Positions 208-16,806 of a stretch of DNA of 18,879 nt are shown piece after piece; positions within the stretch are counted from its first letter, which is position 1, and each line of letters begins with the position of its first letter. Location: UHGV virus genome UHGV-1689020; one strand, 5' to 3'. Under the pieces are notes generated by a model, which searched no databases, was not told the DNA's origin, and saw only the letters and a list, made by a program, of their open reading frames with translations. The position numbers were made by a program, and so were the translations under genes. Source of the stretch: a virus.

Positions 208-2121
208 ATGAGCAAAGTAAAAATCGGTGAATTAATAAACTCACTTGTTAGCGATGTTGAGTCAATAGATAACTCTGACCGTCCTCAAGGGGAAAAAACA
301 AAAAAAATAAAGGCTGTTGCATTAAAATTTAAAAATGCATTATTTAATGATAAGCGAAAGTTTAGGGGGAAAGGATTAGAAAAAAGAATTACAGCCAACA
401 CCTTCAATGCCTATATGAGCAGGGCCAGAAAACGGTTTGATGATAAACTTCATCATAGCTTTGAAAAAAATATACATCGCCTATCTGAAAAGTATCCTTT
501 ATATAATGAGGAGCTATTGTCATGGCTTTCTCTACCTGCTGCCGATATTCGCCAGAGAATGTCAGCTTTACAGGCAAAATTAAAATTAATTCTCCCTTTA
601 TCAGAAGATTTATCTAATATCAGAATTGGTGATAACAAAAGTCATAATAAGTTATTAAAATTATCAAATAAATATAAAGAGTGGCAATTCGCCATATCTG
701 ATTTAACTAGCGATAACTGGAAAGATAAGCGCGATTATTTATATAAATTACTACAGCAAGGATCTGCCTTACTTGAGGAGTTGAATCAGCTAAAAGTTAA
801 CCATGAGATTCTCTATCATCTTCAACTAAGCCCTGCCGAACGCGCATCTATCCAGCAACGATGGGCGGACGTTCTGCACAATAAGAAACGTAACGTGGTG
901 GTCATTGATTACCCTAAATATATGCAAGCTATTTACGATATTATAAATAGCCCTGCTACATTAAATAATCTAAACACTCGTTCAGGTATGGCTCCTTTGG
1001 CATTTGCACTTGCTGCATTGTCAGGAAGACGAATGATTGAGATTATGTATCAAGGTACATTTACTGTTTCTGGTAAGTATACCGTTGATTTTTTAGGCCA
1101 AGCAAAAAAAAGAACTTCTGATGATATAACCAGAAAAATATATACATTATGCGAAGCAAAAACATTTGTTTATTTAATAAATGTACTTCGCTCATGCCCA
1201 GCAGCATCTGATTTTGATGATGTCGTTAAAGGTTATGGAGATAACGACACACGCTCTGAAAACGGACGGATTAATGCCATATTAGCAAAGGCTTTTAACC
1301 CGTGGGTTAAATCATTTTTCAAAGATGACCGCCGTGTTTATAAAGATAGTCGTGCTATTTATGCCCGTATTGCGTATGAAATGTTTTTCCGCGTAGATCC
1401 TCGTTGGAAAAACGTAGATGAGGATGTTTTCTTTATGGAAATTTTAGGCCATGACGATGAAAACACTCAATTACACTATAAGCAATTCAAGCTGGCCAAC
1501 TTCTCAAAGACATGGAGGCCAAATACTGGAAACGAAAATACCAGGCTGGAAGCATTGCAGCAGCTTGATGACGAAATGCCAGGATTCGCCAGAGGAGATG
1601 CCGGGGTTCGTCTGCATAACACAGTTAAGCAGCTGGTAGAGCATGACCCCTCTATAAAAATCACGAACAGCACTCTAAGAGCATTCAAATTTAGCCCTAC
1701 AATGATTAGTCGATACCTGGAATTTGCTGCTGATGCTCTGGGGCAATTTGTTGGCGAAAATGGACAATGGCAGCTGAAAATAGATTCTCCAGAAATCGTT
1801 ATGCCTGACGAAGAAGAGCTGGAAGCAATACCTGAACAGACGGATGAATTATCAGAGGATGACGATCTGGATGACGACGAAATTGAGATAGAGGAAGAGG
1901 AAGAGGAAGAGGAAGAGGAAGAGGAAGAGAGCGTAGAAGAACAGCAACCGCCCGCGCCTTCTTCACCTGTATCTAAGCCGGTATTTAAGCCTGTGAGAAA
2001 TATTGGTGATGGCTCATACGTTGTTGAGTTTCATTATAATGGCCAGAATTATGCTTGGTCCGGCAGTGCAAACAGCCCTATATCAGCAATGCAGTTAGCA
2101 TGGCTGACATATTTCGGATAA
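208..2121 (+). CDS. telN: protelomerase (telomere resolvase), N15 TelN-like
   Basis: 637-aa ORF; N-terminus MSKVKIGELIN...FNDKRKFRGKGLEKRITANTFNAYMSRARKRFDDKLHHSF and long internal stretches match my recollection of N15 TelN nearly residue for residue; acidic C-terminal linker; AGGAGAGG Shine-Dalgarno before the ATG; adjacent to the telO-like palindrome. Confidence 0.93.
   Translation: MSKVKIGELINSLVSDVESIDNSDRPQGEKTKKIKAVALKFKNALFNDKRKFRGKGLEKRITANTFNAYMSRARKRFDDKLHHSFEKNIHRLSEKYPLYNEELLSWLSLPAADIRQRMSALQAKLKLILPLSEDLSNIRIGDNKSHNKLLKLSNKYKEWQFAISDLTSDNWKDKRDYLYKLLQQGSALLEELNQLKVNHEILYHLQLSPAERASIQQRWADVLHNKKRNVVVIDYPKYMQAIYDIINSPATLNNLNTRSGMAPLAFALAALSGRRMIEIMYQGTFTVSGKYTVDFLGQAKKRTSDDITRKIYTLCEAKTFVYLINVLRSCPAASDFDDVVKGYGDNDTRSENGRINAILAKAFNPWVKSFFKDDRRVYKDSRAIYARIAYEMFFRVDPRWKNVDEDVFFMEILGHDDENTQLHYKQFKLANFSKTWRPNTGNENTRLEALQQLDDEMPGFARGDAGVRLHNTVKQLVEHDPSIKITNSTLRAFKFSPTMISRYLEFAADALGQFVGENGQWQLKIDSPEIVMPDEEELEAIPEQTDELSEDDDLDDDEIEIEEEEEEEEEEEEESVEEQQPPAPSSPVSKPVFKPVRNIGDGSYVVEFHYNGQNYAWSGSANSPISAMQLAWLTYFG
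1891..1929 (+). repeat. (GAGGAA)n hexanucleotide tandem repeat encoding the poly-Glu tract of TelN
   Basis: six and a half perfect tandem GAGGAA units, translated as the E-run in ...EIEIEEEEEEEEEEEEEESVEE. Confidence 0.9.
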
Positions 2122-2166: not shown

Positions 2167-2331
2167 CTACCTCGCCTGCCCCTTTTCGTCCTCATCCAAC
2201 TTTCTGATGGCCGTAGAATCAATACCCGCCGCCATACACACATCAGATGCAACAAACCACGGTTCGCCGTTAATCATCACTACACGAACCTGATGCTCTT
2301 CCTGAAAGGAAAAGACTGCTAACGCGCTCAT
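2167..2331 (-). pseudogene. truncated Bro-N/KilA-N domain antirepressor-like ORF (54 codons)
   Basis: hand translation of the minus strand gives MSALAVFSFQEEHQVRVVMINGEPWFVASDVCMAAGIDSTAIRKLDEDEKGQAR*; the F.F....VR....GEPWFVA.DV...G motif is the N-terminal signature of Bro-N antirepressor domains, but the ORF stops mid-domain; AAGGAGG upstream; its ATG overlaps the stop of the upstream ORF (ATGA); below the length cut-off of the supplied ORF track. Confidence 0.5.
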
Positions 2332-2770: not shown

Positions 2771-2940
2771 TCTATATGGCGGTAGCCCAGACGGGGGTAG
2801 GAATACCGGTAAACGAAGAAACCGGCCAGCTAAAAGCTGCCCCATCTGAGCCACCATAAATTTGGTGTACGCAGATTTTACACACAAAAAAACACGCTGG
2901 CGCGTGTTGTGCGCTTCATTTACTCGGGTTCCTACGCCCG
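2771..2940 (-). ncRNA. candidate C4/CI/CA-like antisense regulatory RNA and leader region
   Basis: on the minus-strand transcript, GGGCGUAGGAACCC (from + 2926-2939) and GAGCGUAGGAAC (from + 2761-2772) are direct repeats flanking UUCCUACCCCC (from + 2793-2803), which is complementary to both (10/11 and about 9/11); an intrinsic terminator lies between the first repeat and the complementary element; exact RNA ends unknown. Confidence 0.3.
2881..2908 (-). terminator. rho-independent terminator inside the leader of the anti-immunity-type operon
   Basis: minus-strand reading AACACGC-GCCA-GCGTGTT followed by TTTTTTTGTGTG (7-bp GC-rich stem, 4-nt loop, U-tract). Confidence 0.55.
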
Positions 2941-2967
2941 GCTACGGGATTTACCGTAGCGGAGTAA

Positions 2968-2997
2968 ACTTTACCGTCAAAACGACGCGCACGTCAA
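2968..2997 (-). promoter_or_regulatory. candidate sigma70 promoter for the leftward anti-immunity-type operon
   Basis: minus-strand TTGACG (from + 2992-2997), 18-nt spacer, TAAAGT (from + 2968-2973); -10 is weak, so the call is tentative. Confidence 0.3.
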
Positions 2998-3016: not shown

Positions 3017-3036
3017 ACCCCGTGACCAGTCACGGG
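3017..3036. promoter_or_regulatory. palindrome family B copy 1 (CCCCGTGAC-CA-GTCACGGGG), operator-like site upstream of the candidate promoter
   Basis: 20-bp 9-2-9 palindrome; its core CGTGAC-NN-GTCACG recurs at 7574-7587 and 14960-14973; lies between the stop of the 3099-3386 gene and the candidate -35. Confidence 0.6.
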
Positions 3037-3098
3037 GACAGGTGTTTTTATAGTTTGCTTGAACGAGTGATCAGAAGTTGATCGTTAATCAAAGGCCA

Positions 3099-3386
3099 TT
3101 ATTGATTAAGAGATTGGAAATACCTAACTAACTTACCGGCATCATCACATTTTTCTTTATCTTCGTCCTTAACATAGCCGCGACAAAAGGCTGAATAAAA
3201 TTTTGCATTTTCAGAAGCAAAAGCAGCCGTCGAAAGGAGCAGCTCTTTGCATGACTCTTTTGATGCAGCATCGGGATTATTTTTACATGCAAGGTCCGCT
3301 GATGAGTTAATAACAGAAATGCTATCTTCCTGGGCATAAACCGCAGCAGAAAAGGCAAAACATAAAACAAAAATAAAACTCTTCAC
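3099..3386 (-). CDS. small secreted or periplasmic cysteine-containing protein, function unknown
   Basis: ORF in track as 3099-3410; preferred start is the GTG at 3384-3386, preceded by AGGAGA at about 7 nt; predicted signal peptide MKSFIFVLCFAFSAAVYA then QEDS...; mature part of about 76 aa with 4 Cys. Confidence 0.6.
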   Translation of the reverse strand: MKSFIFVLCFAFSAAVYAQEDSISVINSSADLACKNNPDAASKESCKELLLSTAAFASENAKFYSAFCRGYVKDEDKEKCDDAGKLVRYFQSLNQ

Positions 3387-3413
3387 TTTATCTCCTGTAA
3401 CAGTCATCACAAT

Positions 3414-4199: not shown

Positions 4200-7100
4200 T
4201 TACCCAAAGAAAGCGCCCTGCTCTTCGTAGCTGCATGAGCTATTCCCCGTAATGTATTCACGTAACCGCCGCAGCTCATTGCTGGAAAGGTGATCCATGA
4301 ACTCTGTGAGGTACAGAGATGCAAACGTCATAGCTATGCTGGCTGATGACCATGATGACATAGTGGCCAACTCCTCACTGGAAAGCGCACTCATCGCCCA
4401 GGACTCAGGTACAGCCACTGGCAACACGGCCAAAGCCTCAGAAATTACTGAATGAGGGGCGTTTTGAACCTGCTCGTTTGTGGATCGCGTTTTATCATCC
4501 ATATATATATTGAGATCCAAATCGCGATCCATTTCGATGGCTGTCTTCTCGGCTTTACGCGTTTTTAGGGTTAGGCCATCTTTCTGACGCTGAACAAGAA
4601 TATCCAGCATAAATGCCGCTGATTCAGGCTCAACAAAACGCAAGGTTGGACGCTTATCGCCGTCTCTGCCGCGACGTTTACCTGTTTTAAGGCCAAGAGA
4701 GTCGCAAATGTTTTTAAACAACGCTTCCGGCACTTTAGGCTTCCCTTTTGGCGTCATAAAACCACCAATGTGCAGAACGTTATTCAACAGGTCACGGCGT
4801 TCGGCTGTCATGAGGTTATCTCGAGCGAATTTGAGACGCTCCTGAGTCGCCTCGCCGGTCATAGTCTCAGGGTTGATACCGCAGTCGATAAAGTACTGCC
4901 GGAGAGTTGCTGATTTAAGCGCATAGAAACCGCGCGCCCCGACTTCAACAGTAGGAGTAGCTTTTACCTTGTGATCGATTATTCCAGGGAATTTAGTTTT
5001 AAAGACATCATCAGCCTGCTCGCGAGTCATCGCGGTCACTACAAAATATTGCCACTGTCCCGCCTGACGGTATGCGTAGGTAAAATTGATGGCTGCTTCT
5101 TCCCGGTCGTAACGACGAGCTGTTACCTCATCTAAAAGCATTGTTTCATAGCGGCGAACTTTGTCTCGAGCACCATCGAAATAGAATTTCAGCGTGCCTT
5201 CTTCAACCGGTAGTTTCAGTTCGTTTTCAATATCCCAGCGGACAAGTTTTGCCTGTTCTTCAAGCGTCAGCGCGCGTTTTTTTAGCAGTTTTTCACGCTC
5301 TGATTCTTGTGGAGTTTCTGTATTGAGGTGCAGATCCAGTGTCTGTTCCCACACAATATCCCGCGCTTCTTTACGCAGATCTTTACCGATATCATTCGCA
5401 GCATAATCGGTGGCCAGCGGTGATACCTTATAACCGTCGCTGTGCATGATGCAGATCATGTTGCTGGCGTAGTCGTTACGCGCAGTCGCTTCAATTGCGG
5501 CTGCTTTAATTTTCATCCTGGTAAAGTCGGTATTGGCCACCCCCATTGATATACGGTCGCCATCGAAAACGACATCCGTAAGTTCACCGTTCATACCTGC
5601 GGTAGCAAGCAATGCCTGGGCGAATGCTCGTTCTATTTTTTGCGGGTCAGTTTCACGTTTTGCACGAGCTTTATCAAAGCCGATAATAAATTCTTTTGCT
5701 GTACGGTCGCGGCGTAGCATTTGCACTGCGTCGCTGGGTACAACTTCACCACAGAACATGCCGAAATGACGGTCAAAATGTTTTTGCTCAATCGACACGC
5801 CGGATGAAATAGACGGGCTATAAATCAGGCCGTCGTATTTTTTGACCATCTTTTTCGGTTGATTGGTAAATGCTTCAACTTCTGGCTCTGGTTTGTTTTT
5901 CTGGTTTACACACAGAAATTTCTTACCAGGAAAATGCATTCTCAGGGTGGCTGTCACATCTTCTGCAAAGGTGGAGCTGTCGGTGGCCAACATGATTTTT
6001 TCGCCATCCGATACAGCTTTCACCACCTCGGTCATGATGCGATCTTTTTCTGTATAAAAAACCCGGATTGGCTCACCTGTTTCGCGGTTGCGAACATCAA
6101 CAGGTAATTCAATTACGTGGATCTGCAGCCATGCCGGTAAACCTAGTTCTTCACGGCGTTTCATAGCCAGTTCAGCCAGGTCAACCAGCAGATCGTTCGC
6201 ATCAGCATCCACCATTATTGGGTGTTGTTCCGTTCTGGCCAGCGCGTCAATTAGCGTATTGAATACAGCCACTGGGTTTTCCATAGCCCGACCGGAAAGA
6301 ACGGCACGTAGCCCTTGTGTGGCCTCGTCAAAGCCAAAATAGTCGTGCTGGCGCATCAACGGTTGCCAGCAGTTTTTAACAATCGAGTTTATGCAGATGG
6401 TCAGTTTACTGGCGTATGGAGCCATTTCCTGATAGCCAGGGTCCTGATAGTGCAGGATATCGGCTTTTACACCTTTTCCTTCTGTCATCATTTCCCACAG
6501 GCCACCAATAAGGGAGACACGGTGAGCAACAGAGATACCACGTTCTGAGCTATGCATTAACGGTCGTAACAATCCAGTAGATTTGCCGGAACCCATACCA
6601 GCACGGACGATGACTATCCCCTGTAGTGATTGCACGTACTTCAGGAGATCATCGGTCATTACCGAAGTTTCAAAACGCTTATAGGTGATATGTTGAGGGC
6701 GTTTATTGGGATCAGTTATGCGTTCGCTGAAAGAGCGCGGAGCCTGGGCAATACGGCACTTTTTATTCAGGCGACGGGCAATGTGGTCTTTTACCGTAGC
6801 GCGATAGATATTTTCCAGTCCCATTTCACGCAGAACGATGCAGAACATGTTAAATAAATCTGACGGACTGTTAGGAACCGGGCAGGTTAGCATGCCAATA
6901 TCCACCGCTCTCAGCAGCTCTTTGGCAAAAGTACGACGGTTATCCCGCTTAATTGTCTTCAGGCGGTTGAGCGTCAGAGATAGCAAATCAGTACCGGTTT
7001 TCAGGCGGTTTGCTGTTGCAAATAGTTGACGTGCTGTTTCACGAAGTCCACGTAGTTTGTGCAGGTCGTTGAAGTCACTGCACTCCATTTGCGGATCGTC

Positions 7101-8195
7101 TTCAAAAGTTGGATAGACGCAGCGGACATCGTTGAATTTCGATAAGATTTCATAGCCAGTCCGCAGGCCGGTATTCCCTTTTCCTTCTGTGGCAGATTTC
7201 CGGTCATTATCCAGTGCGCAGGTGATTTTTACCGCCGGGTACATGTTTACCAGTTGTTCCACAACATGAACCATGTTGTTAGCGGATACAGCGACAACCA
7301 CAGCGTCAAAGCGTTTATCTTTTTTCGTGGCAAGCCAGATGGATGCACCAGTAGCAAAACCTTCTGTAACAGCGATGTTTTGCGCCCCTTTCAGCTCACC
7401 GATAACAAAGCAGGCACCGACGAAATCGCCGCTGGTTACTGCGCTGGTCTGGTATTTCCCACCTTGTTTGTCGATTCGCTGCCAACCCACAATACGACCA
7501 TCGTAACGACCGTCCAGGTGAGCCAGAGGGATAGCCATATATGTGGTTGGTCCCCGACTCCATTTCGCACTGTCGTGACTGGTCACGCGACGCACATCAC
7601 ATGAACTAAAAACGTCACGAATACCTTTTTTAATCGCATATGGCCATGAGCCGTCTTCAGCCGGAGCATGTTCCCACGCGCTGTGGAATGCCAGCCATCC
7701 CAGCAAACGTTCATGGTCCATTTGGTTGTTTTTCAGGTCATTAATTCGTTTTTGTTCTTCACGGCGACGACGTGCTTCGGCCTGACGTTCTATTCTTTCC
7801 CGTTCTTCTTCCGGTTGTGCGACCACGGTCGCATTATTCCGTTGTTGCTCACGGCGATATTCAGAAAACAGGAAGGAGAAACCGCTCCATGAGCCAGCAT
7901 CGCTGCCTTTATGGACGAAGTTAATGAACGGGTAATCAATCCCTTTGCTGTGTTCCAGCCGGGAGTAAATTTCTACGCGTCCTTTCAGGCTCTTTTCGAG
8001 AGCTTCTGGAGATGTTTTATTGTATGAAGAGTAACGCTCAACCCCCCCGCGAGGGTTGAGTTGGATGTTGTCGGAACAGGCAGGCCAGTTGATACCAGCC
8101 ATCTGTGCCAGCTCGGTTAGTTCATCCCGTGCTGCTTCAATTAGCGAGAACGGATCGCTGCCAAAGCGATCCGCATAGAAATCGTTTAATGTCAT
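4200..8195 (-). CDS. repA: multifunctional replication protein RepA (primase-helicase), N15 RepA-like
   Basis: 1331-aa ORF; Walker A motif GMGSGKST in the central part; size, orientation and position between telN and cB match N15 repA as I recall it (about 1300 aa). Confidence 0.88.
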   Translation of the reverse strand: MTLNDFYADRFGSDPFSLIEAARDELTELAQMAGINWPACSDNIQLNPRGGVERYSSYNKTSPEALEKSLKGRVEIYSRLEHSKGIDYPFINFVHKGSDAGSWSGFSFLFSEYRREQQRNNATVVAQPEEERERIERQAEARRRREEQKRINDLKNNQMDHERLLGWLAFHSAWEHAPAEDGSWPYAIKKGIRDVFSSCDVRRVTSHDSAKWSRGPTTYMAIPLAHLDGRYDGRIVGWQRIDKQGGKYQTSAVTSGDFVGACFVIGELKGAQNIAVTEGFATGASIWLATKKDKRFDAVVVAVSANNMVHVVEQLVNMYPAVKITCALDNDRKSATEGKGNTGLRTGYEILSKFNDVRCVYPTFEDDPQMECSDFNDLHKLRGLRETARQLFATANRLKTGTDLLSLTLNRLKTIKRDNRRTFAKELLRAVDIGMLTCPVPNSPSDLFNMFCIVLREMGLENIYRATVKDHIARRLNKKCRIAQAPRSFSERITDPNKRPQHITYKRFETSVMTDDLLKYVQSLQGIVIVRAGMGSGKSTGLLRPLMHSSERGISVAHRVSLIGGLWEMMTEGKGVKADILHYQDPGYQEMAPYASKLTICINSIVKNCWQPLMRQHDYFGFDEATQGLRAVLSGRAMENPVAVFNTLIDALARTEQHPIMVDADANDLLVDLAELAMKRREELGLPAWLQIHVIELPVDVRNRETGEPIRVFYTEKDRIMTEVVKAVSDGEKIMLATDSSTFAEDVTATLRMHFPGKKFLCVNQKNKPEPEVEAFTNQPKKMVKKYDGLIYSPSISSGVSIEQKHFDRHFGMFCGEVVPSDAVQMLRRDRTAKEFIIGFDKARAKRETDPQKIERAFAQALLATAGMNGELTDVVFDGDRISMGVANTDFTRMKIKAAAIEATARNDYASNMICIMHSDGYKVSPLATDYAANDIGKDLRKEARDIVWEQTLDLHLNTETPQESEREKLLKKRALTLEEQAKLVRWDIENELKLPVEEGTLKFYFDGARDKVRRYETMLLDEVTARRYDREEAAINFTYAYRQAGQWQYFVVTAMTREQADDVFKTKFPGIIDHKVKATPTVEVGARGFYALKSATLRQYFIDCGINPETMTGEATQERLKFARDNLMTAERRDLLNNVLHIGGFMTPKGKPKVPEALFKNICDSLGLKTGKRRGRDGDKRPTLRFVEPESAAFMLDILVQRQKDGLTLKTRKAEKTAIEMDRDLDLNIYMDDKTRSTNEQVQNAPHSVISEALAVLPVAVPESWAMSALSSEELATMSSWSSASIAMTFASLYLTEFMDHLSSNELRRLREYITGNSSCSYEEQGAFFG
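4481..4531. other. candidate replication origin element inside the 3' part of repA
   Basis: 9-bp inverted repeat TGGATCGCG ... CGCGATCCA flanking a 33-bp AT-rich spacer containing (AT)5 and three GATC sites within about 50 bp; the N15 ori is reported to lie within the 3' end of repA (recalled from literature). Confidence 0.35.
7574..7587. repeat. palindrome family B copy 2 (CGTGAC-TG-GTCACG), inside repA coding sequence
   Basis: exact 14-bp core shared with 3019-3034 (inverted centre) and 14960-14973. Confidence 0.6.
7818..7833. repeat. palindrome family A copy 1 (TGCGACC-AC-GGTCGCA), sopC/centromere-like, inside repA coding sequence
   Basis: 16-bp 7-2-7 palindrome identical to copies at 10261-10276 (inverted) and 16787-16802; differs from the F sopC SopB site TGGGACCACGGTCCCA (recalled) at one position per arm. 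Confidence 0.65.
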
Positions 8196-8440: not shown

Positions 8441-9037
8441 TCATCTACCCTCAACCATGAATGATTTGATCGTTCCGACTATTTGGTGAACAAATTCAAG
8501 ATCGCTTTTCCTGAAGATGGCGCGTTGTGAGTTTGTTCCATCCAGATAGTAATTTTCATCATCAAAACGGGCCAGGCGCTGGATAGTGATATTTCCTGCA
8601 GTATCACGAACCAGAACATCCTCGCCGGGGACCAGTTCCAGCGCAGAATCGACCAGGAGAAAATCGCCTGGCTGATAGTTTCCCTGCGTAAGATTGCTGA
8701 TAGTTAACGCATACACAGTATTGCGCTGGCTGATGAATGGCAGGAATCGCTCAGTATTTGGAACCTGTCCCGGCTTCCACTCTTCATCCGGCCCACTTTC
8801 AGTTGTGCCAATAACAGGAATGCGGTCAGGGTCATATTCTGTCCCATATAGCACCCAATGCACTGGCTTGCGTAAGCACTTAGCCAGGGCAATACCTATC
8901 TCCAGTGACGGCATTACGTCGCCACGTTCTAAGTTTTGGACGCCTGCTATAGAGATATCGACAGCCTCAGCAACTTCTCGCAACGTCAGCTTCATCTCTA
9001 AACGGCGTGCTTTCAGTCGTTCGCCTCGTGTTTTCAT
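8441..9037 (-). CDS. cB: prophage repressor CB (HTH-XRE N-domain, CI/LexA-like C-domain apparently lacking the catalytic Ser motif)
   Basis: 198-aa ORF; N-terminal HTH LTLREVAEAVDISIAGVQNLERG; C-terminal ...PGDFLLVD... fold signature but no GxSM motif; divergent from cro across an operator-containing intergenic region. Confidence 0.8.
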   Translation of the reverse strand: MKTRGERLKARRLEMKLTLREVAEAVDISIAGVQNLERGDVMPSLEIGIALAKCLRKPVHWVLYGTEYDPDRIPVIGTTESGPDEEWKPGQVPNTERFLPFISQRNTVYALTISNLTQGNYQPGDFLLVDSALELVPGEDVLVRDTAGNITIQRLARFDDENYYLDGTNSQRAIFRKSDLEFVHQIVGTIKSFMVEGR

Positions 9038-9059: not shown

Positions 9060-9075
9060 TTATAGCTGGCTATAA
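9060..9075. promoter_or_regulatory. immB operator O1 (TTATAGC-TG-GCTATAA)
   Basis: 7-2-7 palindrome with perfect arms, 23 bp upstream of the cB ATG in the cB-cro intergenic region. Confidence 0.6.
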
Positions 9076-9101: not shown

Positions 9102-9128
9102 TTGTTGTTTATTGTTTATAATAACAAC

Positions 9129-9350
9129 ATGAAACCAGAAGAACTTATTCGCCACTTTGGCAGTGTAGAAAAAGCAGCGGCAGGGGTAGGTGTAACACCC
9201 GGAGCTGTTTACCAATGGTTAACCGCTGGAGAGATTCCTTCATTGCGGCAAAGCGATATTGAAGTTCGTACTGCTTATAAGCTGAAGAGTGACTTTACAA
9301 CTCGGCGGGTAAAGCAGTCGATTAAGGAGAGTCGTAAGCGTGGAGCTTGA
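9129..9350 (+). CDS. cro: Cro-like HTH regulator
   Basis: track ORF 9102-9350 begins at a TTG; preferred start is the ATG at 9129 (MKPEELIRHFGSVEKAAAGVGVTPGAVYQW...); HTH motif; divergent from cB; no obvious Shine-Dalgarno, possibly short-leader transcript. Confidence 0.65.
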   Translation: MKPEELIRHFGSVEKAAAGVGVTPGAVYQWLTAGEIPSLRQSDIEVRTAYKLKSDFTTRRVKQSIKESRKRGA

Positions 9351-10050
9351 GTATATACGCAGCTGCGTCTCTACGGCATTGGCTGATGTTCATTATCGCC
9401 AGCGTGGCATTCTGGAGGTCCAGCTTGAGCAGATGCGTCTCGGTAGGTCAGGACGGTTTAACAATAAACCAGTCCGGTCAATCAGTGTGGGGGATGATAA
9501 CTCATACGAAGTGTCCGTTCCTGCTGAGCCGGTTAGATTCCACCAGGGGAAAACATTTAAACAATCATCAATGTTGCTCACTGATATTGATTTTCAGAGC
9601 GCCAGCTGGCGCAGGGCTATTGGTCAGTTGAATAACGAGGAATCAGCCTGGCTTTATTATTGCTACGGATGCAAGCCTGATTACAACAATGATGTGATTG
9701 TTTGTCAGTGGTTATGGCTTGATTTTCTGGTTGCTCATTCGGGGGGCGGCTTTAAAAAAATGAAGGCCTCCACGAAAAAAGCCATGCGGAAATTGATTTA
9801 TTACGCGGCACAGCAGGTTAAATCAGAACTTACGTGTGCTGAGGCAGTTGATGAGAGAGAACAGGACAGGCATCTGAGTTTTCTACTGAATATATCTATT
9901 GATAGCTGGAGACAAGATTATAAAGAACGCTGGCTTTTAATTAAGTCGCGATGTCTGAGCTTAAATCGAACTGCATTATTAAATGCGGCGGAGAAGCGCA
10001 GTGAAATCATCAAACGCCATCGGGCAGGAAGTGCCATTCTGCCTTTGTAA
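9340..10050 (+). CDS. putative late-gene antiterminator (Q-like), assigned by cB-cro-Q synteny
   Basis: 236-aa ORF starting at GTG 9340 with AAGGAGA 10 nt upstream; overlaps the cro stop by 11 nt; function is inferred from position only, I could not confirm Q motifs by eye. Confidence 0.45.
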   Translation: MELEYIRSCVSTALADVHYRQRGILEVQLEQMRLGRSGRFNNKPVRSISVGDDNSYEVSVPAEPVRFHQGKTFKQSSMLLTDIDFQSASWRRAIGQLNNEESAWLYYCYGCKPDYNNDVIVCQWLWLDFLVAHSGGGFKKMKASTKKAMRKLIYYAAQQVKSELTCAEAVDEREQDRHLSFLLNISIDSWRQDYKERWLLIKSRCLSLNRTALLNAAEKRSEIIKRHRAGSAILPL

Positions 10051-10303
10051 ACAAGTTATGTTCAGGAAACCGTCGAAGCCAGAATTAAGGTATTCGGGGG
10101 TAAGAAATGAATATGTTATCTGGTGTCCAACTTGTGGTTACAGGACACGACCAGATAGTAATAAGCAGTCTGTAATTGCCGATTGGTATTTATCAAATCA
10201 GCCAGGTAATAAGCATATAGAAAATCTTTGGATTAAGCGTTACTTGGAAATCAGAGAGGGTGCGACCGTGGTCGCACAAGAAAATGAAAATAACGCCATT
10301 TAA
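9983..10303 (+). CDS. small Cys-containing protein (CxC ... CxxC), function unknown; alternative start at ATG 10058
   Basis: 106-aa ORF overlapping the 3' end of the Q-like gene; contains FCLC and CPTCG; no clear Shine-Dalgarno for either start; its 3' end carries palindrome A copy 2. Confidence 0.35.
   Translation: MRRRSAVKSSNAIGQEVPFCLCKQVMFRKPSKPELRYSGVRNEYVIWCPTCGYRTRPDSNKQSVIADWYLSNQPGNKHIENLWIKRYLEIREGATVVAQENENNAI
10261..10276. repeat. palindrome family A copy 2 (TGCGACC-GT-GGTCGCA, inverted orientation), sopC/centromere-like
   Basis: exact reverse-complement of the 16-mer at 7818-7833 and 16787-16802; located in the overlap of two small ORFs after the Q-like gene. Confidence 0.65.
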
Positions 10304-10510: not shown

Positions 10511-11110
10511 GTGACTAATCAGATTATTTACGACAGGAAACGGTCTGATGTAATGATTGATCTTGAAACAATGGGTACTAACACATGTGCTCCAATTGTT
10601 TCTATCGGGGCAGTGTTTTTTTCTCCAGAAAGTGAGGAATTAGGTCCTACTTTTTATGTGCCAGTGAATCTCAGAAGCTCGATGTTGAATGGAGGTATCG
10701 CCGATGGTGATACCATTTTATGGTGGTTGAAACAGAGCAAGGAAGCCAGAGCCGCTATTTGTACTAATGATGCCCTTGATATTAAGGATGCACTTTTTGA
10801 ATTATCACACTTTATTACTTGCCATGCATGTAATTTAAAAAAGTTGAAAGTATGGGGAAATGGAGCAACGTTCGATAATGTAATTTTACGCGGTGCTTAT
10901 GAGCGCGTTGGCTTAGCCTGTCCGTGGGAATATTTTAATGATCAGGATGTTCGAACAATCGTTAATCTTGGTCAGTTTATTGGTTTTAATCCTAAAAAAG
11001 ATATGCCATTTGATGGCGAACGACACAATGCCTTGGCTGATGCTATTCATCAGGCTAAATATGTATCCGCAATTTTCTCCCGTCTTGTAAAAGGGCAAGG
11101 AGAATCGTAA
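10511..11110 (+). CDS. DEDDh-type 3'-5' exonuclease (DnaQ-like fold)
   Basis: 199-aa ORF, GTG start with GAGGAG 8 nt upstream; motifs MIDLETMG (exo I), WGNGATFDNVIL (exo II), ERHNALADAIHQAKY (exo III with His). Confidence 0.75.
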   Translation: MTNQIIYDRKRSDVMIDLETMGTNTCAPIVSIGAVFFSPESEELGPTFYVPVNLRSSMLNGGIADGDTILWWLKQSKEARAAICTNDALDIKDALFELSHFITCHACNLKKLKVWGNGATFDNVILRGAYERVGLACPWEYFNDQDVRTIVNLGQFIGFNPKKDMPFDGERHNALADAIHQAKYVSAIFSRLVKGQGES

Positions 11111-11529
11111 TGGCAAAGGCTTTTACACCAGAACAGAGGGAAGAACTGAATAAACAAATTGTGGAACTCGTGCGCCTGAATGGACGAGGAACGGTTAGGC
11201 AACTTGCGGATGAAACTGGTATTAGCCGGTGTGCTGTTAGTCGTTTATCAAGAGAGCTTGCTGCCAGTGGTGATTTGTATATCTCTGGCTCCGGGATATT
11301 TCTGTCTGCACAAGCACGCAAGGACTGGCAAAACGCCCGTAAAAAACTATCAAGAGTAAAGCCGAAGAAATCGGTAGTGGTTGATCCAGACCTTATCTGG
11401 TCATTACCTGACGGAGAAATACGTCGTTACGACAGGCGCTTGAACATGATTTGTCACGATTGCCGGAAAAGTGAAGTTATGCAGCGTGTGCTGGCTTTTT
11501 ATCAGGGAAATTTACAGGAGGTGGCGTAG
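11110..11529 (+). CDS. HTH DNA-binding protein, function unknown
   Basis: 139-aa ORF; ATG overlaps the upstream stop (TAATG); AAGGAGA upstream; HTH-like segment GTVRQLADETGISRCAVSRLSREL. Confidence 0.6.
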   Translation: MAKAFTPEQREELNKQIVELVRLNGRGTVRQLADETGISRCAVSRLSRELAASGDLYISGSGIFLSAQARKDWQNARKKLSRVKPKKSVVVDPDLIWSLPDGEIRRYDRRLNMICHDCRKSEVMQRVLAFYQGNLQEVA

Positions 11530-14637: not shown

Positions 14638-14964
14638 ATGGCGCTGACACCGGCAGAACGGCAAAGGAGACGCAGGGAACGGTTGAAGAAGGAAGGCACA
14701 TCAAGACGGGAGTGGATTCTAGAACCTGACGAGTTACGTATGTTGGGGGAAATTTGTGTATTGCGTAGACCAGGGCGAGTTCCATATTCGGAGAACGAAG
14801 TCATTGGTTTGCTGATCAGGAAAAACTATAAGGAGCTGCAGAAGCAGCTATCTACTACTTGCCCGCGATGTGGTCAAAAAATGCCTGTTTCAGAATGCAT
14901 TTTTGATGGCGAAGGGTCATGCCACCTTACAACCACGAGGCTGAAACTTGCGCTCAAAGCGTGA
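14638..14964 (+). CDS. small basic protein with C-terminal Cys cluster (possible DNA-binding regulator)
   Basis: 108-aa ORF, AGGAGGA upstream; N-terminal LTPAERQRRRRERLKKEG, C-terminal CPRCG...C...C; stop codon lies inside palindrome B copy 3. Confidence 0.55.
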   Translation: MALTPAERQRRRRERLKKEGTSRREWILEPDELRMLGEICVLRRPGRVPYSENEVIGLLIRKNYKELQKQLSTTCPRCGQKMPVSECIFDGEGSCHLTTTRLKLALKA

Positions 14965-14973
14965 CTGGTCACG
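14960..14973. promoter_or_regulatory. palindrome family B copy 3 (CGTGAC-TG-GTCACG) overlapping a stop codon and the next gene's ribosome-binding site
   Basis: CGTGACTGGTCACG runs straight into GGAGGG (the Shine-Dalgarno of the ORF at 14983); same core as 3019-3034 and 7574-7587. Confidence 0.6.
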
Positions 14974-14982
14974 GAGGGATAA

Positions 14983-15225
14983 ATGGATAAAAAGGCATTG
15001 CTTTTTGAAATGATACGAAAACGGAGCGAAAAGAGCTTTTCTGATGGTGGTGATGGGTTTGTTTTCGCTTCGATGCTTGCTTTTGATGTTGGGTTAAATA
15101 GCAGAATTGTTAAAAGGATGCTTGATTCTGCTGTCCGTACTGGACTTCTTGAGAAAGTTGATCGTGGCATAGGGAGAGAGCATAAGTATCGGGCCACACA
15201 GCAGTTTACGCAGTTAATTCATTGA
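14983..15225 (+). CDS. hypothetical small protein (possible winged-helix)
   Basis: 80-aa ORF with GGAGGG 5 nt upstream. Confidence 0.5.
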   Translation: MDKKALLFEMIRKRSEKSFSDGGDGFVFASMLAFDVGLNSRIVKRMLDSAVRTGLLEKVDRGIGREHKYRATQQFTQLIH

Positions 15226-15307
15226 AAATTGACCGTCAAGTTTGAGTTTTAACCTGTAATTTTATACAGTATAAATAACCTTTTTTAGTTAAATGGTATG
15301 AGATCTA

Positions 15308-15511
15308 ATGTCTGAAGCAGCCGTATCAACTCTTGAACAACTCGATTCAAATTTAAGAGATATTGACGCCGTTCTGGATCTGGTTAGCGTCACCCTGGCT
15401 TCTCCAGAAGCCAGCCTACATATTGGTGAGGTTTCACGACTCATCAACATGTCGCGAGAGATTGCCCAGCATTGTCAGAAAACTATCGCTGTTGAGCGTT
15501 CACATCATTGA
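15308..15511 (+). CDS. hypothetical small acidic protein
   Basis: 67-aa ORF after an AT-rich intergenic region; weak Shine-Dalgarno; convergent with the toxin-antitoxin pair. Confidence 0.4.
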   Translation: MSEAAVSTLEQLDSNLRDIDAVLDLVSVTLASPEASLHIGEVSRLINMSREIAQHCQKTIAVERSHH

Positions 15512-16782: not shown

Positions 16783-16806
16783 GCTGTGCGACCACGGTCG
16801 CACAGC
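16783..16806. promoter_or_regulatory. palindrome family A copy 3, extended (GCTGTGCGACC-AC-GGTCGCACAGC), sopC/centromere-like, at the head of the late region
   Basis: 24-bp 11-2-11 palindrome containing the 16-mer core (16787-16802); intergenic, 3 nt after the stop of the previous gene. Confidence 0.65.

Follow-up and report, generated by a model that had tools for sequence, protein, structure and literature searches.

A palindrome that accompanies gp46-family genes in N15-like and other temperate phages, and its candidate binding protein

Which protein reads the palindrome that recurs in the early region of N15-like linear plasmid-prophages, and what would it do there? The DNA analysed here (the window, 18,879 nt) is the 18.9-kb telN-repA-immunity-early region of such a prophage (Ravinvirus). 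Its identity is 97% with Escherichia phages PhiR46_1 and YDC107_1 and, over the parts in common, about 76% with N15 and phiKO2. A first-pass annotation of this sequence had listed three copies of a palindrome, here called family B, with no protein assigned to it. One copy is within the replication gene, one shortly before the anti-immunity promoter, and one a gene ahead of a presumably SOS-controlled antirepressor unit (Table 1). N15 serves as the model for linear plasmid-prophages, and the pJAZZ cloning vectors derive from it. Family B would be the third, strictly conserved protein-DNA specificity of N15, with a binder that we infer below.

Table 1. Coordinates of the B sites and of neighbouring features in the window
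Feature	Position	Strand	Remark
telN	208-2121	+	
C4 antisense RNA	2775-2861	-	Rfam gathering-level match
isrK-like sRNA	2887-2960	-	Rfam gathering-level match
Anti-immunity promoter	2968-2997	-	Promoter scan; -35 TTGACG (2997-2992), 18-nt spacer, -10 TAAAGT
B site 1, CGTGACCAGTCACG	3021-3034	.	Exact match; extended palindrome 3018-3037 in this sub-lineage only
repA, replication gene, 1331 aa	4200-8195	-	Hosts B site 2 and the family A site 7818-7833
B site 2	7574-7587	.	Inside repA (minus strand), codons 203-207 CGC GTG ACC AGT CAC
Family A sites	7818-7833, 10261-10276, 16787-16802		
cB	8441-9037	-	
cro	9102-9350		
Q-like gene	9340-10050		
DUF977 winged-helix protein gene	11110-11529		
gp46 homologue gene, 108 aa, phrog_536	14638-14964	+	Putative binder, from co-occurrence with the motif
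B site 3	14960-14973	.	Holds the TGA stop of the gp46-family gene; abuts the gp47 Shine-Dalgarno
gp47 homologue, 80 aa, winged-helix-like	14983-15225	+	Directly downstream of B site 3
LexA box CTGTAATTTTATACAG and AntA-paralogue antirepressor gene	15254-15269; 15308-15511	+	Next unit after gp47

The palindrome and its three places in telomere phages

The three copies are real, being exact matches to CGTGACNNGTCACG where about 0.001 would be expected by chance for 12 specified bases (18879/4^12). The opposite strand of CGTGACCAGTCACG reads CGTGACTGGTCACG, so that the copies represent one 14-mer in two orientations. When up to two mismatches were allowed, six matches were found in the window, compared with a mean of 0.32 in shuffled sequences, and none of 200 shuffles reached six. 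A census of palindromes with 6-bp arms in the window returned two repeated families only, B and family A, the latter (TGCGACC-NN-GGTCGCA) being the same as the "putative plasmid partitioning site" annotated in phiKO2. The unit that the B copies share is 6-2-6 (14 bp) and not 7-2-7 as described at first pass, since the seventh positions are non-complementary at sites 2 and 3. Likewise, the 20-bp palindrome placed at 3017-3036 in fact sits one base further on (CCCCGTGACCAGTCACGGGG), and its extension is not kept in N15.

Family B is not a LexA, CB or CRP operator. The CRP site is TGTGA-N6-TCACA, while B has the spacing GTGA-N4-TCAC; the LexA pattern CTGT-N8-ACAG occurs as a single box in the window, outside the B sites; and the CB-type palindrome TATAGC-TG-GCTATA is found at 9061-9074. 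The earlier view that B is a recognition specificity apart from the sopC-type family A and the CB operators is supported. A symmetrised logo of 91 distinct sites from other phages showed information confined to Y-GTGAC-NN-GTCAC-R, with an A/T-rich centre. Most podoviruses have AT there, N15-types have CA/TG or GG/CC, and a distant telomere phage (L117) has AA/TT. Across more than 150 sites the centre varies freely and the arms show no compensatory changes, and the sites face either way with respect to transcription. Being symmetric, independent of orientation and strictly identical in their arms, they are compatible with a dimer of two-fold symmetry bound to duplex DNA.

The core GTGAC-NN-GTCAC was found at the same three places, namely before the anti-immunity promoter, at repA codons 203-207 and at the junction of genes 46 and 47, in N15 (28549, 33236 and 39268), phiKO2, the two 97%-identical relatives, 46 IMG/VR loci and L117. 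The 46 N15-like loci were recovered with RepA (75-99% identity) and scored where a locus reaches a given region, and each of them that reaches a region keeps the core there. L117, whose RepA, CB and Q are 61%, 55% and 41% identical, carries one B site ahead of icd, another at these repA codons and a third immediately preceding the gp47 homologue, with only the central dinucleotide altered. The plasmid prophage PY54, which has a Sop-type system, contains no B site.

Site 1 lies just upstream of an anti-immunity-type promoter, as noted at first pass, ending 20-23 bp before its -35 TTGACG and starting 65 nt past the stop of the last repA-operon gene (3099-3410, minus strand). No indel was found in the 20-nt spacing between site and -35 among 30 distinct N15-like sequences, and the gap-free conserved block in this set comprises a GATC inverted repeat, AAGCAAACTATAAAAAC, the B site, GGGG-TAAAAT, TTGACG, 18 nt and TAAAGT. 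This promoter is the only one called by the scan, is present in all N15-like sequences and is the nearest regulatory target of site 1. Its predicted start, base 2960, is the first position of the isrK match; isrK is followed by the C4 match and then by icd and antA, making the tandem RNAs the leader of the icd-antA operon, and the isrK and C4 hairpins show covariation in an alignment of N15-like phages. The centre of site 1 is thus near -67.5 from this start. Two other candidate -10 elements, TAAAAT after site 1 and TATAGT on the other strand, would place the site in the spacer or -35 region of a promoter; they are less likely, as neither has a usable -35 or was called by the scan.

Two further observations concern this end of the window. 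The conserved inverted repeat with two GATC (Dam) sites is located where the repA operon ends (3061-3090 in the window), some 25 nt away from site 1. In N15 (about 28590-28613) it reads AACTGATCAG-GTT-CTGATCAGTT; in the window it is degenerate, with GATC at 3069 and 3080. The antB-type gene at 2167-2331 (minus strand) has shrunk to a 54-aa Bro-N fragment in the window and in PhiR46_1, compared with about 260 aa for N15 gp30 and the BRO-family gene of YDC107_1.

At site 2, repA codons 203-207 form the only nucleotide-invariant five-codon window among 496 in 28 distinct repA genes, implying that the DNA sequence itself is under selection. Between the window and N15, 194 of 399 repA codons for the same amino acid are identical in nucleotides. 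Even in L117, the only change at these codons is in the central, unread position of the B site.

Site 3 was said at first pass to overlap a stop codon and the Shine-Dalgarno of the next gene, and both overlaps were borne out: the TGA stop of ORF 14638-14964 (14962-14964) is within the left arm, and the GGAGGG of the gp47 homologue begins at 14973, the last base of the site. The stop-in-site arrangement is the same in N15, phiKO2 and every N15-like locus that reaches the region. gp47 is a likely regulated target and not the binder. In the following unit, the AntA paralogue (67 aa, phrog_6301/10889) is preceded by a perfect LexA box in a promoter-like region and is presumably an SOS-controlled antirepressor of the AntC type. 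An SOS-controlled antirepressor has reportedly been described for N15, and the LexA box and AntA paralogue found here fit.

Co-occurrence of the palindrome with gp46-family genes

Three small proteins encoded at 11110-11529, 14638-14964 and 14983-15225 had been named at first pass as candidate regulators. Comparison across phages singled out the second, the gp46 homologue, and the other two do not fit. The ORF 14638-14964 belongs to phrog_536 ("transcriptional regulator"; E=2.5e-32), is 79-81% identical to gp46 of N15 and phiKO2 and 33-36% identical to the epsilon15 and TL-2011b proteins, and carries all 24 invariant columns of the family. By tblastn, gp46 homologues were found in epsilon15 (gp49), phiV10, TL-2011b (gp20), SPN1S, ZF40 and many Vibrio phages. 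Epsilon15, a 39.7-kb integrating podovirus with an annotated integrase, has three GTGAC-AT-GTCAC sites, one of which contains the gp49 stop codon, TGA, at the register seen in N15, though the C-terminal residues differ. TL-2011b, also with an annotated integrase, has two such sites, one holding the stop of gp20. The Vibrio phage K303 has two B sites in 8.4 kb beside its gp46 homologue.

We then extended the comparison to 45 further IMG/VR loci selected solely by a gp46-family gene (37-49% identity); a gene scan of 2.9 million contigs had confirmed at least 337 gp46 relatives among the 600 pattern matches listed. The 45 loci (801 kb) contain 70 GTGAC-NN-GTCAC sites, compared with 0.6-0.8 expected, and 43 of them have at least one; the other two have no B site within 10 kb on either side of the gene. 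Only the 2-bp spacer is enriched, spacers of 0, 1 and 3-6 giving 0-2 sites each, and none of 59 other palindromes made by permuting the half-sites exceeds three sites in the same loci. In the reverse test, a gp46-family ORF was present in 25 of 120 IMG/VR chunks picked by CGTGACATGTCACG alone. No N15 ORF but gp46 has homologues in every one of the 47 non-N15 loci; the next best is found in six. Lambda, P22 and PY54 have neither B sites nor gp46 homologues, and no B site was found in 244 kb of control DNA made up of these three phages and 107 kb of E. coli K-12. The possibility raised earlier that B is a host repeat was thus not borne out in this limited 107-kb sample.

The motif therefore travels with the gp46-family gene through unrelated phages, which makes gp46 the most likely binding protein; from these sequence comparisons, we regard the protein encoded at 14638-14964 as very probably the binder. 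The window fits the definition of a gp46-family operator set, with Y-GTGAC-NN-GTCAC-R, a 2-bp spacer, three exact sites and a family gene. The full account, in which the B sites are gp46 recognition sites and gp46 is a boundary regulator, is the best explanation that we can offer and is, on balance, probable. The other two candidates were rejected. Homologues of gp47 were found in our search in telomere phages only, including the motif-free PY54, and are missing from the motif-bearing podoviruses; the DUF977 protein has no homologue in any motif-bearing non-N15 locus.

The gp46 family comprises more than 1000 clusters at 90% identity, all labelled "hypothetical" and from Enterobacterales prophages, and the comparison gives it a concrete candidate DNA target. 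Its invariant residues include A6, E7, R8 and R13 in an N-terminal basic helix (AER..R.R) and C75, C78, C87 and C95. The segment REWILEPDEL resembles the strand-helix start of ribbon-helix-helix proteins, to which the gp46 model gave weak matches only, and searches of Pfam, NCBIfam and the PDB (phmmer and profile) returned no meaningful match.

Placement of the sites and a possible boundary role

Of 59 distinct sites outside the N15-types, 25 are on a stop codon or no more than 40 nt past the end of a gene, compared with 5% of random positions, and 24 (41%) fall within crudely called genes, compared with 86%. A terminator-like hairpin is present within about 45 nt of 23 of 62 sites (9% for random positions), and many sites are 1-15 nt ahead of the next ribosome-binding site, as at window site 3, in L117, in the group of L154 and before terS of K303. 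The stop codon of the gp46-family gene itself is overlapped by, or within about 30 nt of, a site in about 18 of 45 non-N15 genes. In epsilon15, each of the three sites closes a gene block at its 3' end (early-right genes, terS-terL and head-to-gp18), and after each block with a 3' B site the next block opens with an annotated repressor-binding site. In N15-types, B sites 1 and 3 part upstream operons from the two antirepressor units.

Some sites lie elsewhere. In L127 (3632-4177), L118, L121, L128, L130, L135, L136, L147 and L155, a B site is within a phrog_163 gene, which encodes a CII-like activator; the site is in the 3' end of the gene, about 55 nt before the stop, in a conserved coding context. 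In an epsilon15-like group of Proteus/Providencia type (L154, 17627-17638), a late gene (phrog_590) seems to start at the ATG in the centre of GTGACATGTCAC, and its ribosome-binding site would be AAGGTG.

Read from the placement of the sites, a regulator role for gp46 is the most economical reading, and bound gp46 would most likely regulate transcription at the boundaries of genes and operons. A symmetric gp46 dimer would read the two GTGAC half-sites on double-stranded DNA and ignore the central two base pairs, with DNA contacts probably made through the invariant N-terminal basic helix and a ribbon-helix-helix-like core, and with zinc probably held by the four-Cys cluster. We infer the binding as a ribbon-helix-helix dimer, as well as the direction and mechanism of regulation, from sequence. 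Protein and sites would form a portable module shared by many temperate phages of Enterobacterales and Vibrio. The N15-type module would be fixed where the repA operon ends, just ahead of the anti-immunity promoter, in the 5' part of repA and at the gene 46/47 junction, where, as a roadblock or operator, gp46 would limit transcription entering the two antirepressor units, repA and gp47. This boundary or roadblock mechanism is a tentative proposal, which we hold to be possible rather than probable.

A site on or next to the gp46 stop codon might also offer feedback on gp46's own transcript, by analogy with LacI at O3. In that case the operator likewise lies on the 3' end of the coding sequence of its own regulator, and LacI bound at O3, in the 3' end of lacI, is said (Abo et al., in 2000) to act as a roadblock that yields truncated, tmRNA-tagged LacI. 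The likeness is a mechanistic analogy only.

P22 Arc and Mnt (immI) offer a second likeness, as small phage proteins of ribbon-helix-helix type that act on short symmetric operators and control an antirepressor operon; correspondingly, B site 1 is upstream of icd-antA, and site 3 is upstream of gp47 and the SOS-controlled antirepressor. Different from the Arc/Mnt operators, which are within or beside the controlled promoter according to the P22 annotation, the B sites are at about -67, in the interior of a gene and where two genes adjoin. Neither Arc nor Mnt was found to resemble gp46 in sequence, and gp46 has additional N-terminal and Cys-cluster parts.

A roadblock does not account for every site. 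The 41% of sites within crudely called genes include the late-operon junction site in the group of L154, where a stable block would hurt lytic growth, and the fixed position of site 1 at about -67 could equally be that of an activator. Activation, antiterminator loading and bridging of sites were therefore considered as alternatives.

In the first of these, gp46 would be a positive factor that activates the anti-immunity promoter from about -67, or that loads as an antiterminator onto RNA polymerase before terminators or gene starts, and so times the late or antirepressor genes as Q does. The gene order in epsilon15-types is in keeping with this idea: the gp46-family gene, as the last early gene, is followed by the site, an intrinsic terminator and terS, its spot is the one that belongs to Q in lambdoid phages, and the epsilon15-types have no annotated Q homologue. 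Several sites are 1-25 nt upstream of terminator hairpins, the K303 site is 19 nt before terS, and the spacing between site 1 and the promoter is invariant. However, N15-types already carry a Q-like gene (9340-10050), readthrough from the sites at convergent junctions (TL-2011b 32282 and epsilon15 2142) would run into antisense DNA, a site only 10 nt ahead of an ATG leaves no room for a promoter of that gene downstream of it, and ribbon-helix-helix proteins are mostly repressors. A positive factor is unlikely in our judgement.

Known late regulators resemble gp46 in part. Lambda Q acts at QBE, and P2 Ogr and P4 Delta are zinc-finger late regulators. gp46 shares with systems of this kind a small protein with a Cys cluster and, in epsilon15-types, a gene at the early/late boundary, but no homology was detected, the B sites are palindromic and they also occur at operon ends and within genes. 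Moreover, N15-type phages carry a Q homologue besides gp46. For the epsilon15-types, the comparison places the gp46 family at the early/late boundary, where no regulator is known.

To return to the boundary reading, its widest form would make the gp46 family a widespread and so far undescribed class of sequence-specific phage boundary proteins. In this form, the proteins would bind, as ribbon-helix-helix/zinc dimers, a palindrome like matS but one base pair shorter. Placed at the 3' ends of transcription units, and often over the stop codon of their own gene, they would halt or gate RNA polymerase, shield antirepressor, replication and late modules from read-through, and control their own synthesis through truncated non-stop transcripts. 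We consider this generalisation rather doubtful. If true, bacterial viruses would have in this class their own equivalent of DNA-bound terminator proteins, and the class might share an evolutionary origin with MatP.

Relation to matS and other readings of the palindrome

The half-sites of B are the same as those of matS, the 13-bp GTGAC-RNY-GTCAC at which MatP, the organiser of the E. coli Ter macrodomain, acts. The spacers differ, with 3 bp in matS and 2 bp in B (cores of 13 and 12 bp), and since all three window sites have the 2-bp spacer, they do not belong to matS. In the Ter region of E. coli K-12 (1,500,001-1,550,000), we found four matS sites (GTGAC-GCT/AAC/ACT/ACT-GTCAC) and no site with an N2 spacer; a 50-kb non-Ter sample of the same genome contained no matS. 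Homology of gp46 to MatP (PF06303 / PF17414) was rejected, as hhalign gave a probability of 0.1% and none of 38 members had a Pfam match; MatP was likewise not found by a PDB profile search with the gp46 family. Different from E. coli MatP, which lacks a C-terminal four-Cys cluster, gp46 has one, is phage-encoded and is associated with sites biased to gene ends. The likeness to matS may concern how the site is read, not membership.

By the same likeness, gp46 might be architectural, bridging dispersed sites as MatP does matS and looping 3021-7574-14960, with the effects on transcription being secondary; this we consider improbable. A host protein, MatP or another Enterobacterales factor, might instead bind the B sites, with gp46 a mere co-occurrence. 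The shared half-sites, and a core that is invariant in phages of Escherichia, Klebsiella, Salmonella, Proteus, Xenorhabdus and Vibrio, would be expected of such a factor. But the motif is tied to the gp46-family gene, the sole gene common to all motif-bearing loci, and is absent from lambda, P22, PY54 and the 107 kb of E. coli; furthermore, its spacer is one base pair off that of matS, and the 3-base spacer is unenriched in these phages (1 site vs 70). Binding by a host protein is thus quite improbable. Does the one-base change in the spacer set the phage system apart from the host Ter organiser, or does it let the two interfere?

As a kind of system, a palindromic operator read by a small DNA-binding protein of a phage is known. 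The gp46 family, its invariant matS-like site and the placement at stop codons and unit ends appear to be undescribed. The B sites are unannotated in the N15 and phiKO2 records, open-access papers on telomere phages, epsilon15-types and pJAZZ vectors do not mention the B motif or gene 46, and no relevant paper was found with GTGACCAGTCAC, GTGACTGGTCAC or GTGACATGTCAC in open-access full text.

That the palindrome acts as an RNA hairpin, in termination, processing or translation coupling at gene junctions, is very improbable. Window site 1 does fold into a 9-bp hairpin (-15.7 kcal/mol, z = -3.2), and many sites are at stop codons, at ribosome-binding sites or beside terminators. However, the extended stem of window site 1 (CCCC/GGGG) is missing in N15 and other lineages; N15 site 1, sites 2 and 3 and the epsilon15 site show no folding beyond that of shuffles; in the terminator scan, window site 1 was not called as an intrinsic terminator; and neither the absence of compensatory changes in the arms nor the occurrence in both orientations relative to transcription is expected of an RNA element.

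The least probable reading of all, and the one that we set aside, is the first-pass suggestion of a second centromere family for plasmid partition: although the B copies are dispersed like those of the sopC-type family A and the repA copy is 245 bp from an A site, B is present with its gene in integrating podoviruses such as epsilon15 and TL-2011b, which are without par genes, and absent from the plasmid-prophage PY54, the relatives of the window encode a single ParA/ParB pair, family A coincides with the annotated phiKO2 partition sites, and family A changes sequence between lineages while the B arms never do. The likeness to N15 SopB/sopC, namely short palindromes dispersed in the same genome region with one inside repA, is accompanied by a different sequence and a cognate protein of ParB type there, B following gp46 and not the par genes.

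The core of family A is GCGACC in N15, phiKO2 and the window, GGGACC (8 copies) in PY54 and GGGGCC in L117. The L117 sites of family A are at 5091 and 12218, and its repA copy is 12 nt from the B site, compared with 245 bp in the window. Finally, the YDC107_1 record (CP025712.1) contains the telN-to-repA arm twice, in inverted orientation (28021-36551 and 36934-45458), with several frameshifted copies. This looks like a head-to-head dimer or an assembly artefact, and it doubles the apparent numbers of A and B sites in that record.
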